Shown: positions 29,651-33,298 of the stretch, piece by piece
Position numbering within the stretch: position 1 is the stretch's first letter
Layout of the letters: every line of letters starts with the position of its first letter
Assembly (NCBI GenBank): GCA_040751795.1
Contig: JBFMHR010000002.1
Span: forward strand, 32,001-96,000
DNA from: Thermoplasmatota archaeon
Lineage (GTDB): Archaea > Thermoplasmatota > Thermoplasmata > UBA10834
Reading direction: 5' to 3'
Length of the DNA stretch: 64,000 bases
Made by a program: the position numbers and the translations under genes
Notes under the pieces: model-generated
The model's database searches: none
What the model was told of the DNA's origin: nothing
The model's input: only the letters and a program-made list of their open reading frames with translations

Positions 29651-30620
29651 TATTGCCAGGCCAACATGTTGTTTAGCGGCTACAACTTTTAGTAGCTGCG
29701 GGCTGAATGCCTCGGCGAACCTTGGCACTTACACCCCAGCTCTATCAACGCCATCATGTAATGGCGGTTGTGAGGTGCCTCGTTTTCGGGGCGGCTTCAA
29801 GCTTAGATGCTTTCAGCTTTTATCCGCTATCGCGTGGCTGCTCAGCATTGCCCTGCCGGACAACTGATAGACTAGAGGCGACGAATCCTCGTTCCTCTCG
29901 TACTAAAGGATCCTTCCCGTCAGGCACCAAGACGCTTCCAGCAAAAAGCAACAAACCTGTCTCACGACGGTCTGAACCCAGTTCACGATCCCTTTTAATG
30001 GGCGAACAACCCCACCCTTGGCAGCTGCTGCACCACCAGGATAGGAAGAACCGACGGCGAAGTAGCAAGCCTCCAGGTCGATATGGACTCTTGCTGGAGA
30101 CGACTCAGTTATCCCCGGGGTAACTTCTCTGTAATCACTGACCCCCACTTGTGAGGTACAGTGGTTCGCTAGGCCCTGATTTCTCATCGTGGTTCGTTGT
30201 TGGGCCGAACCACGTCAAGCCGGCTTTTGCCCTTGCACTCTTCGGTAGATTTCTGACCTACCTGAGCCGACCTTAGGGCGCCCTTGTTACCTTTTTGAGG
30301 GCGTGGCGCCCCACCCAAACTGCCTACCTACCGGTGTCCATCCGAAGATGTAAGTGGTACGAGTTCAAAAGGGCGGTGTTTCATCGTCGACTCGGAACTG
30401 ACCTAGCGGCCAGCCCTGGTAACGTCTCCCGCCTACGCTACACATTCGAGCTCATATCACAACGACAGGTTGCAGTAAAGCTCCACGGGGTCTTCGCTTT
30501 CAGCTGGAAGTTGACGGACTGTGCGCCGTCATGTAGGTTTCACCGGCCTCGACGCGGGGACAGTAGAGCTCTCGTTGGGCCTTCATGCAAGTCGCCAATT
30601 AAGCGACAAGGTATTACGCT

Positions 30621-31318
30621 CACATCTGTTACTTTCGAGACCTCCGATTGCTCGGAGGCGGGACACGATTTCTCGTGGCCTCCTCATGTCGCCATGAGGG
30701 TCGGACTATATCTTCATCCATCCGGATGTTCGGCGTATAGTCTCTGAGGATTCTAGACGCAGATTCGTTTCGCCTTCTGTTCATCTCACTTGCGAGTATG
30801 GCTACTTCCCTTAGTCCTGCTGCAGTCAGATGTTGACCTCTGTCAATGATCCGGACTGCTTGCGCGAACTTCTTGAAGTCGTTCCGCTTCTTTGTCCGCA
30901 GAGGATTTCTATCAAAGAACTCCACAACCTTCTTCAGGTTGTCTAGTCCACGTACTCTGAGTTCCATCCGATCGCCGTTGTTAACGACGACCGATCCACA
31001 ATCGAAGAACGATTGCATGACTCTCAGGATGCCTATGTCTCTGCGGTGCTGTACTACGCGGAACTCTGGCAACACCTGCCAACCCATCTTCATTCGTGGT
31101 TGACGATTGATGCCTATATGGAAGCAACCTTCTCCATCGACGAACCCGACGACCCAATTCGCATCTAGCCTTTCCTGCTGATTACCTGCACCCATCACAT
31201 TGTCACCAGGCACTCGAGGCCTTCTCCTTATCTCGAGGAGTTGACCGAAAGTGCTTCGGTAGTGTGAGATACTCAGGCGTTCCAGCATATGGCCGAATTT
31301 TACTAAGGCAACGCAGTC
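30621..31318 (-). mobile_element. Group I intron in 23S rRNA at E. coli-equivalent position 1931
   Basis: Splits AAGGU^AGCG; 5' exon ends in U, intron ends in G; P1 UAAGGU/GCCUUA; P AUGCUGGAAC, Q AAUCAGCAGG, R UCAGAGACUA, S AAGAUAUAGUCC. Confidence 0.93.
30629..31195 (-). CDS. Single-motif LAGLIDADG homing endonuclease, intron-encoded
   Basis: WVVGFVDGEGCF motif, FRVVQH, PLRTKKRNDF; lower GC than host genes. Confidence 0.93.
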   Translation of the reverse strand: MGAGNQQERLDANWVVGFVDGEGCFHIGINRQPRMKMGWQVLPEFRVVQHRRDIGILRVMQSFFDCGSVVVNNGDRMELRVRGLDNLKKVVEFFDRNPLRTKKRNDFKKFAQAVRIIDRGQHLTAAGLREVAILASEMNRRRNESASRILRDYTPNIRMDEDIVRPSWRHEEATRNRVPPPSNRRSRK

Positions 31319-31352
<34 letters not shown>

Positions 31353-33298
31353 ACGGTCCTTCGTTCCCTTGTAAGGGAGTTTCAGATACCGTCACTGGGC
31401 AGGATTCAGCGGCAATACGCATCCTTTCGGACTAGCTGCCACCTTTGTTTTGGTTAAACAGTCGGGGCTCCCTTGTCACTGCGACCAGCTCATCACTGAG
31501 CTGGCACCGCTTCTCCCTAAGTTACGCGGCTAATTTGCCGAGTTCCCTCGCGTCAATTAACGCCGACAGGCCTTGGACTTCTCATCCAGGGGCACCTGTG
31601 TCGGATCTTGGTACGATCGTTCCAGTTGTTTAGCACATCCTTTTTCACGGGCACCAGGGATAGGCTGAAGGGGGCCTTCGCCCCCCTACTCGTGATTTCA
31701 CCCGGTTCTCGCCATTACGGCTCTTCCCGGGCTTATACACTTGAACAGATTGGCGCTCCTGTTCAGCATACCCCGATACGTCAGGATGTGCGCAGAGACT
31801 GGCACGGTGCAGGAATATTAACCTGCTTACCCTTTCGACGTTCTCGATTAAGGAACGCCTTAGGATCGACTAACCCTCGACTGACGAACATTGTCGAGGA
31901 ACCCTTGCCCCTACGGCCGAGCGGATTCTCACCGCTCTTTGCTGCTACTCCCACCAGGATCCTCATTCGAACGCGGTCCATTCGATCTCACGACCGAACT
32001 TCTACCCACGCACGACGCCCCCCTACCAGGTCACCTTTCGGTGCTCTCAAGTATCGGTAGCTGACTTAGCCCCGTCCATTTTCAGGGCCCTTGATCTTGA
32101 CCGGTGAGCTGTTACGCTATCTTTAAATGGTGGCTGCTTCTAAGCCCACATCCCGGTTGTCTCTGACTAAGGACTCCTTTTGCCCGTTCGCACTTAGTCA
32201 GCATTTAGGGACCTTAACTTGAGGCTGGGTTGTTCCCCTTTTGCGTATGGAGCTTACCCCTCATACGCTCACTCCCGGAGTCTAAGACGACGACAGGTTC
32301 GGAGTTTGGCAGGGCACCGAGGGATTTCTCCCCCTAAATGCCCAATCGGTCGCTCTACCCCATCGTCCGCCTCGTCCGAGATCTACCTGCGAGTAGTTTC
32401 GGGGGGGACCAGCTATATCCAGTTTAGATTGGCCTTTCACCCCTAGACGCAGATTATCCCAATGATTTGCACCTCAACACGGGTTCGGTCCTCCACCCAG
32501 GTTTCCCTGGGCTTCAACCTATCCACGCCTAGATCAACTGGCTTCGGGTCTCTCACCGATGACTTCGGGCGAGCCCACCCCGTCCCTGGCCCTTGCGGGT
32601 TGCGGACTTGTCGGTTTCCCTCCGGCTCCTTGGTTGCCCAATTAGCCTCGCCATCGATTTGAACTCCCTGGCCCGTTATTCGAAACGGATAATACGACGT
32701 CGGTCCACTCTTGCGAGTTTCTTCCCTTGCACGCCGTATAGTACTGTCACCATCTGGTTTCAGGCTCTTTGCACCTCCCGCTAAGGGTACTTTTCAGCTT
32801 TCGCTCACGCTACTACTGCACTATCGGTCTCGGGTCGTATTTAGGGTTGGAAGCAAATGGCTCCCAGATTCACGCGCGATATCCAACGCGCGGTACTCAA
32901 GATCCTCCGAATCATCTTTCCAGCTTGCCCCTACAGGGCTGTCACCCTCTATGGCGCCCCATTCCAGGGGACTTCGGGTTGGCAGGTTAAGATGTACCAG
33001 AGTCTACAACACCACATCTCCGGCCCATTTCTGGGCAGGATTCAGTTTGCCCTGTGCCGCGTTCGATCGCCTTTACTGACGGCATCTCGATTGATTTCTT
33101 TTCCTCGGGGTACTAAGATGCTTCAATCCCCCCGGTTCCCTATCCTCACGGATTGCTCCGAAGAGCAGGAAGTCCCATTCGGTGATCACCGGATCAATAG
33201 CTCCTTGCGCTTACCCGGTGCTTATCGCAGCTTGGCACGACCTTCTTCGGCGCCCGAACCGAGCCATTCCCCAGACGGTTTACTTAGCCGCTAGCATG

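Follow-up and report, generated by a model that had tools for sequence, protein, structure and literature searches.

A group I intron of the L1931 family with a LAGLIDADG endonuclease gene in the 23S rRNA gene of a Thermoplasmata archaeon

The 23S rRNA gene on contig JBFMHR010000002.1 of a Thermoplasmata archaeon is interrupted by an insertion that carries a gene of its own, raising the question of whether this element is a self-splicing group I intron, as a first-pass annotation had proposed, a classical archaeal intron excised at a bulge-helix-bulge (BHB) motif, or an artefact of assembly. We analysed a 64,000-nucleotide stretch of this contig, termed the window, and conclude that the insertion very probably belongs to the widespread L1931 family of mobile group I introns, residing in the single 23S gene of an uncultured archaeon of sediment or soil. 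The source genome is a metagenome-derived bin of 2.05 Mb in 53 contigs with a completeness of 92.8%, and a search of all its contigs yielded a single copy each of the 23S gene and of the intron. Host gene and insertion are located as follows:

29671..33296, minus strand: archaeal 23S (large subunit, LSU) rRNA gene, the host gene; Rfam RF02540, 2690 bits, model positions 1–2987
30621..31318, minus strand: group I intron, 698 nucleotides (nt), after the equivalent of E. coli U1931; exact gap against intron-less genomes of the same genus

To delineate the insertion we searched the genomes of 40 relatives with the 23S region and extracted the junctions by script. The alignment of the host gene to the Rfam LSU model is broken once, by ~699 nt, between ...CCCUCUUAAGGU and AGCGUAAUACCUUG, and the exon flanks ...CUUAAGGU and AGCGUAAU... 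directly abut in five genomes of the same genus (G001, G002, G004, G005, G009), fixing the insertion at 30621–31318 with a length of 698 nt. As the bases on either side of each junction differ (exon −1 U and intron 1 G; intron 698 G and exon +1 A), the junctions leave no room for sliding. In E. coli K-12 rrlH the flank motif, CCTAAGGT followed across the junction by AGCG, occupies positions 2183–2204 of locus L156, and with the rrlH start at 260 the T preceding the junction corresponds to 23S position 1931; the archaeal exon flanks align with this motif. The first-pass annotation had placed a 698-nt insertion between AAGGU and AGCG at L1931, and both its limits and its site agree with the intron-less same-genus genomes and the E. 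coli numbering. Its description of the feature stood in all checked details, the sole correction being that the feature lies on the minus strand.

Within these limits, the helices of a group I ribozyme could be laid out on the window's own sequence, where R1 denotes a covariance model described below and ORF an open reading frame:

31319..31325, minus strand: P1 5′ exon strand UUAAGGU; 7/7 pairs with intron nt 10–16, invariant in nine homologues
31303..31314, minus strand: internal guide, P10 strand GCGUU (intron 5–9) followed by P1 strand GCCUUAG (intron 10–16)
31161..31297, minus strand: ribozyme 5′ half; all pairs form, R1 match aligned well to about 31165
31297–31292 (P3), 31286–31282 (P4), 31277–31274 (P5), 31268–31262 (P5a), minus strand: 5′ strands
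31261–31199, minus strand: expanded P5b arm (intron nt 58–120)
31198–31191 (P5a), 31188–31185 (P5), 31181–31177 (P4/Q), minus strand: 3′ strands
31176–31173 (P6), 31168–31161 (P6a), minus strand: 5′ strands
30761..31160, minus strand: P6a loop (intron 159–558), endonuclease gene body; absent from the 250–283-nt ORF-less homologues
30621..30760, minus strand: ribozyme 3′ half, also coding for the final 42–43 codons of the ORF; R1 match, RF00028 alignment of R, S and P9, pairs verified
30760–30753 (P6a′), 30750–30747 (P6′), 30742–30737 (P7/R), 30734–30729 (P3′), minus strand: helix strands of the 3′ half
30728–30715 (P8 hairpin), 30709–30704 (P7′/S), minus strand: helix strands of the 3′ half
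30699–30682 (P9, GCGA loop), 30680–30661 (P9a, GAAA loop), 30659–30640 (P9b, GCAA loop), minus strand: hairpins
30621, minus strand: terminal G, intron nt 698
30616..30620, minus strand: P10 3′ exon strand AGCGU; 5/5 pairs with intron 5–9

Overall, 79 of the 80 pairs of P1, P10 and the core helices form in the window sequence, with 67 of 68 in P3, P4, P5, P5a, P6, P6a, P7, P8, P9, P9a and P9b together. P1 ends in a U·G pair at the 5′ splice site, a feature shared by 9/9 homologues, and P10 joins the guide to the first five nucleotides of the 3′ exon with two wobble pairs among its five. P6a comprises 8 bp and P7 6 bp, the P3/P7 pseudoknot is present, and GNRA loops cap P9, P9a and P9b. The intron terminates in G, and a GUG end was found in all 13 extracted homologues. 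P2 is absent from the window sequence, where the joining segment J1/3 (UAAAA) runs directly into P3. The P5b arm measures ~63 nt in the window and is larger also in G010 and L023, compared with 10–45 nt in ORF-less introns; folded alone, the window's arm forms a long hairpin of −24.5 kcal/mol.

Support for this fold across relatives came from R1, which was built from nine ORF-less introns with the window excluded. R1 matched the element in two pieces, 30611–30903 for the 3′ half (136 bits, E = 1.7e-40) and 31092–31328 for the 5′ half (93 bits, E = 2.4e-27), and these intron halves are its only two matches both in the 64 kb and in the whole 2.05-Mb genome. RNAalifold predicted 81 pairs for the nine short introns, covering P1, P3–P6a, P5b, P8 and P9–P9b, and compensatory changes were seen in 24 of these. 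For the structure that we scored, from which two spurious stems were removed and to which the P7 pseudoknot was added by hand, 98.3% of the 689 cells of the nine-sequence alignment are paired, and both sides have changed in a compensatory way in 22 of the 77 pairs; structures slid by 1–3 columns gave 0–3 such pairs, and none of 500 shuffles reached the observed value. Covariation was seen in P5a, P5b and P6a, and P7 contributes one compensatory pair, A-U to G-C, in two of the nine sequences. The one ORF-less homologue that we scored against the Rfam group I model (RF00028, Intron_gpI; gathering score 50 bits), that of G006 from the same genus (L006), reached 64.1 bits (E = 5.7e-16) over the full model including P1 with its exon. 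It is on these ORF-less homologues and on the custom model, not on the window's own Rfam score, that the group I call is based. Judged from sequence, the element is confirmed as a group I intron with a complete core, both halves of which are homologous to ORF-less family members, and the P1 helix with its U·G pair, the terminal G and the P/Q/R/S elements named in the first-pass annotation all form.

The ORF of the intron encodes a LAGLIDADG protein:

30629..31195, minus strand: LAGLIDADG ORF, 188 amino acids (aa) plus TAA stop, motif VVGFVDGEG; PF00961

The longest ATG-initiated frame, 30629–31288, would give 219 aa, and the conserved start is the ATG at 31195 (188 aa, MGAGNQQERLD...). The protein matches the Pfam family LAGLIDADG_1 (PF00961) in a single stretch with 87.9 bits against a cut-off of 23.1 (E = 9.5e-25), and NCBIfam gave no match for it. 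Its nearest solved structure is PDB 5gkk_A, a 170-aa 'putative homing endonuclease' (E = 3.6e-49; a literature search on 5GKK found no paper), followed by I-PanMI, I-OnuI and I-SmaMI. Among 6127 relatives at E ≤ 1e-10, the best is 96% identical and resides on a contig of another assembly. The motif residues G17, F18, D20, G21, E22 and G23 (G-F-V-D-G-E-G) are invariant in 18 aligned sequences. Thus the gene is intact and full-length with one motif, as had been annotated, and the codon-by-helix map bears out the earlier claim that it starts across Q and reads through R and S: the ATG is formed by the bulged A of the P5a 3′ strand and the two bases that follow it, immediately 5′ of P5′/P4′ (Q); codons 1–10 cover P5a′, P5′, P4′ (Q) and P6 and reach into P6a; codons 11–146 make up the P6a loop; and codons 147–188 run through P6a′, P6′, J6/7, P7 (R), P3′, P8, P7′ (S), P9, P9a and P9b. 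The TAA stop lies 8 nt upstream of the terminal G.

Codon-position analysis separated the body of the gene from its ribozyme-encoded tail. Across the 136-codon body, the differences at positions 1/2/3 were 32/19/56 relative to G010 and 37/19/71 relative to L023, a third-position excess typical of purifying selection. For the tail the corresponding counts were 6/9/7 and 3/4/4, with no codon-position bias. An AlphaFold2 monomer model based on the 18-sequence alignment was confident for residues 23–141, and from residue 142 to the end the predicted local distance difference test score (pLDDT) stayed below 50 with no secondary structure. Many relatives of ~161 aa end within the variable P8 hairpin and others read on; in one relative (P0003, 213 aa) there is no stop before the 3′ splice site, and the frame enters the 3′ exon for ~17 codons. 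A functional carboxy-terminal tail is not supported, given the relatives that stop in P8, the lack of codon bias and the predicted disorder; codon pattern and model instead make the tail a predicted by-product of the RNA and not a selected part of the protein. A palindromic target was considered as support for a homodimer, and this signal was weak (6/11 positions at offsets 0 and +4, with ~2.75 expected) and was not used.

The distribution of the element is patchy. Of the 40 genomes of relatives searched, 25 matched the region and sorted into the following states:

full ORF-containing L1931 intron, 1 genome: G010
short ORF-less L1931 intron, 7 genomes: G006, G012, G015, G018, G021, G022, G027
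empty L1931 site, 13 genomes: G001, G002, G004, G005, G009, G016, G028, G032, G033, G037, G038, G039, G040
different ~735-nt intron at L1923, 8 nt upstream, 1 genome: G026
uninformative because of contig ends, 3 genomes: G013, G020, G034

The ORF-less introns of these seven relatives and of two Thermoplasmata metagenome-assembled genomes (MAGs; L032 and L033) measure 250–283 nt. Within the genus of the window, the site is assembled in 7 of 11 relatives, of which five are empty, one holds an ORF-less intron of 254 nt and one the full element with 83% identity. In a sample drawn evenly from the class, R1 matched (E ≤ 1e-6) 15 of 151 genomes, the own genome included, in families f1, f15, f23, f25 and f27, and the two-piece pattern of an ORF-containing intron was found in G000, G010 and G079 only; these class counts are lower bounds, as many bins lack an assembled 23S gene. 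Beyond the class, the 5′ signature of the family (exon TAAGGT, 3–30 nt, then GCCTTAKTAAAAT) occurs in at least 120 species. Among the matches listed, 101 are bacterial, from more than 20 phyla, and 19 archaeal, with hosts in Nitrososphaerota, Woese-, Nano-, Aenigmat-, Hermod- and Promethearchaeota and Thermoproteota. In a search of sequencing runs, the element was found in sediment, soil and wetland metagenomes and metatranscriptomes.

Several neighbouring cases were observed in the same searches. The ORF-less introns L032, L033, L005 and L016 retain ATG-RGT-GCA-GG in the 3′ strand of P5a and those of the G006 type lack the ATG; the retained start region would fit ORF loss from a full element, and the same bases are needed for P5a too. 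The ~735-nt intron at L1923, large enough for an ORF, in a genome of the same order (L022, G026:C4) lies between GACCCU and CUUAAGGU and matched R1 with 25 and 22 bits only. Two class genomes contain two full-length R1 matches head to tail with an overlap of ~10 nt (G150:C90:12837-13379 and G118:C45:18998-19547), an arrangement that resembles twin introns, one at L1923 and one at L1931, with a micro-exon of 8 nt between them, comparable to the KP308720 entries of Nawrocki et al. Strong R1 matches (123–132 bits) off the L1931 contig in G096:C29, G162:C20, G118:C22 and G040:C32 indicate related group I introns elsewhere in those genomes. In a relative of the same family (L011, G013:C22:1-159) the contig breaks off after the first 27 nt of an L1931 intron, which are identical to those of the window intron; here the intron probably broke the assembly.

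The first-pass annotation had further suggested that the element possibly moved across domains. To place the endonuclease we used a tree of 25 rows, obtained from 28 intron ORFs of at least 100 aa by dropping two without a match and one under 80 bits; the window and G010 were assigned to Archaea according to their 23S genes. One branch of the tree (support 89/76, not starred) has all 10 archaeal rows on the same side. The closest partner of the window is G010 (95/91), followed by the Thermoplasmata MAG L023. A recent cross-domain transfer is thus not supported, as the endonuclease nests in an all-archaeal group beside Thermoplasmata copies. What stands of the suggestion is at most an old domain switch; the spread of this copy took place within Archaea.

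Read data were evaluated by placing the contigs of four runs on the whole 23S gene; X3 and X8 are metatranscriptomes, X1 and X2 DNA runs. Each of the four contained intron contigs, 97–99% alike, at a depth of 3–12, compared with an exon depth of roughly 30–320. These data give no verdict on splicing, because intron-less relatives cannot be distinguished from spliced RNA.

How far do these results set the group I reading apart from other origins of the insertion? LAGLIDADG genes in archaeal rRNA usually sit in introns of the EndA/BHB type (PMC6125680), and a classical intron of this kind, cut by the tRNA-splicing endonuclease EndA and merely carrying the homing gene, is nevertheless highly improbable here. 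A BHB motif was defined by two 3-nt bulges with the splice site at the same relative position, a 4-bp helix between them and at least one further helix, and was sought in 32 geometries at the fixed junctions (two topologies with 4 × 4 cut positions). The lone geometry with a 4-bp central helix is the P10 pairing itself; its cuts are asymmetric, its outer helix has 2 bp and an inner helix is absent, and by our estimate ~0.6 such hits would arise by chance among 32 trials. The complete covarying group I core accounts for the junctions instead; the earlier annotation as group I and not BHB/EndA is therefore upheld. The two tRNAs in the window, considered as an internal BHB control, have no intron. 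Apart from LSU rRNA, the tRNA family was the only one matched in the Rfam scan of the 64-kb window, which detected no 16S or 5S rRNA, so that the 23S gene is unlinked. Unlinked rRNA genes are typical of Thermoplasmata. An assembly chimera, or bacterial or organellar contamination of the archaeal bin, is the least probable origin of all and may be set aside almost entirely, even though the assembly is a 53-contig bin from a metagenome and the exon depth far exceeds the intron depth in the DNA runs. On either side of the intron the exon sequence is archaeal and runs on into a complete archaeal 23S gene, on a contig that exceeds the 64-kb window on both sides. An independent bin of the same genus, G010, contains a 704-nt homologue with the same junctions (83% identical over the region), and a 716-nt contig of DNA run X1 spans 30606–31321, extending just 15 and 3 nt past the junctions. 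The 96%-identical ORF protein comes from yet another assembly, and the endonuclease groups with archaeal copies. With identical junctions in independent assemblies and contigs, the locus is almost certainly non-chimeric.

Several observations weigh against the preferred reading as a working, mobile group I intron. The window itself scored only 39.9 bits (E = 1.5e-8) against RF00028, below the gathering score, with just the 3′ half (R, S, P9) convincingly aligned; this low score is explained by ~400 nt of ORF that split the model. The AlphaFold2 monomer model is only moderate (mean pLDDT 67), with low confidence for the LAGLIDADG helix within residues 1–22, which is unsurprising for the interface helix of a presumed dimer modelled as a monomer. 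In the metatranscriptomes the intron depth of 3–7 compares with ~90–200 for the exons, and the ratio in DNA is similar; a joint from 30620 to 31319 that skips the 698 nt occurs as a contig already in DNA run X1. Furthermore, an L1931 intron of Chlamydiales is reportedly unspliced, going by the title of Everett et al. 1999, implying that an intact-looking core is no guarantee of splicing. The intron might accordingly be kept in the rRNA or be removed without ligation, leaving a fragmented 23S, and the read contigs yield no splicing evidence that would speak otherwise. We nonetheless regard this as very unlikely: the window intron has undamaged P1, P10 and P7 helices and an undamaged terminal G, all of which are either conserved or covarying in its relatives, as selection for exon ligation predicts, and the L1931 site belongs to a region of domain IV that is central to function. 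Less improbable, though still unlikely, is that the ribozyme is intact and the element no longer mobile, with an inactive or unexpressed endonuclease, vertical inheritance and a course towards ORF loss. ORF-less derivatives do dominate, the split ORF-containing pattern being confined to three of the 15 R1-matching class genomes, the ATG is enclosed in helix P5a, and excerpts of Haugen et al. 2007 (PMC1995217) infer vertical descent for the L1931 introns of Thermotoga and cyanobacteria. Against this immobile state stand the full-length ORF with its invariant catalytic motif, the third-codon-position excess of the purifying-selection type, the 96%-identical copy in another assembly, and the empty, ORF-less and full alleles side by side in one genus.

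We thus favour the mobile group I intron, which is well preserved and probably still functional. Its catalysis, translation, cleavage and mobility, as they may be pictured from sequence, would proceed as follows. The pre-rRNA would fold into the P1–P10 ribozyme, and an external guanosine would attack after the U of the P1 U·G pair. The terminal G would then dock in P7 while P10 aligns the 3′ exon for ligation, producing an intact 23S rRNA. The LAGLIDADG product would act as a homodimer that cuts intron-less 23S alleles around position 1931, and repair of the cut would copy the intron into the empty allele (homing); the endonuclease may also aid folding, as has been reported for the Thermotoga L1931 protein.

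A more far-reaching proposal is that one uncultured sediment Thermoplasmata genus displays all three stages of the homing cycle, with an active self-splicing and homing intron whose endonuclease, kept by purifying selection, belongs to an archaea-specific clade matched to the archaeal L1931 target. We consider this a real but tentative prospect, a little short of an even chance. If true, the genus would offer a natural setting in which group I splicing and homing could be shown at the bench for the first time in Archaea, and the start codon buried in P5a together with the disordered ribozyme-encoded tail would couple translation to RNA folding. In any case, the clean series of empty, ORF-less and full alleles within one genus can be used for testing archaeal group I self-splicing and homing, and the locus offers an archaeal-target L1931 meganuclease for characterisation. 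A literature search for group I introns in Thermoplasmata gave no publication that deals with this host, and a phrase search of the literature turned up no bench demonstration of group I splicing or homing in Archaea.

Among known systems, archaeal BHB rRNA introns with LAGLIDADG genes, of the I-DmoI and I-PorI type, share with the window intron the archaeal 23S host and the LAGLIDADG homing gene. They are spliced by protein and lack a ribozyme core, whereas the window intron has a full group I core and no BHB fit. At the protein level, the match to PDB 5gkk extends over residues 41–198 of the 219-aa ORF, including the DED-V-P tail encoded by the S element. The I-OnuI-type enzymes (I-OnuI, I-PanMI, I-SmaMI) are two-domain monomers; in contrast, the window protein has one domain and would need to dimerise.

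The bacterial and organellar members of the L1931 family are close in architecture. Excerpts of Haugen et al. 2007 (PMC1995217) list as hosts Thermotoga spp., Simkania, Synechococcus C1/C9, green-algal organelles and Acanthamoeba mitochondria, and describe introns that are IC1-like without P2, with bacterial lengths of 654–700 nt and single-motif proteins of 143–167 aa. The Thermotoga introns, at 698–700 nt with 162-aa proteins, match the window intron in size, and the absence of P2, a complex P5 and one LAGLIDADG motif are common to both sets. An ORF running from a peripheral loop into the core is likewise described in these excerpts, with an L1917 intron as the example of overlap; the window ORF extends further than the ORFs given there, to 8 nt before the 3′ splice site. 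In the parts of Hausner et al. 2014 considered here, ORF/core overlap is drawn as a general class and a maturase-like activity is cited for the 23S intron protein of Thermotoga neapolitana. Bacterial L1931 introns and the window share the 5′ signature of exon TAAGGT, internal guide sequence GCCUUAK and a following UAAAAU. They differ in the host exon (CUCUUAAGGU before and AGCGUAAUACC after the site in archaea versus GGUCCUAAGGU and AGCGAAAUUCC in bacteria), and the window endonuclease is placed apart from the bacterial and organellar ones, in a group that is entirely archaeal. Parts of Tsurumaki et al. 2024 (PMC11270868) report LAGLIDADG_1 at 23S position 1931 across bacteria of the candidate phyla radiation (CPR/Patescibacteria), with the site, the Pfam family and the ~180-aa single-domain proteins as in the window. 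Those hosts are bacterial and often have several introns per gene, whereas the window has one intron in an archaeal gene. Size, lack of P2, single-motif endonuclease and ORF/core overlap are textbook for the L1931 family, and the window intron leaves the existing knowledge of intron biology unchanged.

The nearest counterparts are the 39 archaeal group I introns reported by Nawrocki, Jones and Eddy (2018; NAR 46:7970, PMC6125680), all from metagenomic assemblies. Their Table 1 contains 14 IB4 introns at LSU/1931, and 21 of the 39 introns contain LAGLIDADG ORFs. Domain, gene and site are the same as for the window intron, and the L1931 lengths, which we computed from the published coordinates, fall into ~250–460 and 680–745 nt, two classes that recur among the window intron and its relatives. 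By analogy with these archaeal introns the window intron may be labelled IB4, a subtype label that depends on the author, the L1931 introns being IB4 in PMC6125680 and IC1-like in the excerpts of PMC1995217. The hosts in Table 1 are Thaum-, Woese-, Pace-, Nanohalo-, Micr-, Aig-, Aenigm- and 'Euryarchaeota', with no Thermoplasmata named. The window intron thus adds the host class Thermoplasmata and a within-genus polymorphism to a kind of element already catalogued in 2018, the archaeal L1931 group I introns, of which it is a further member.

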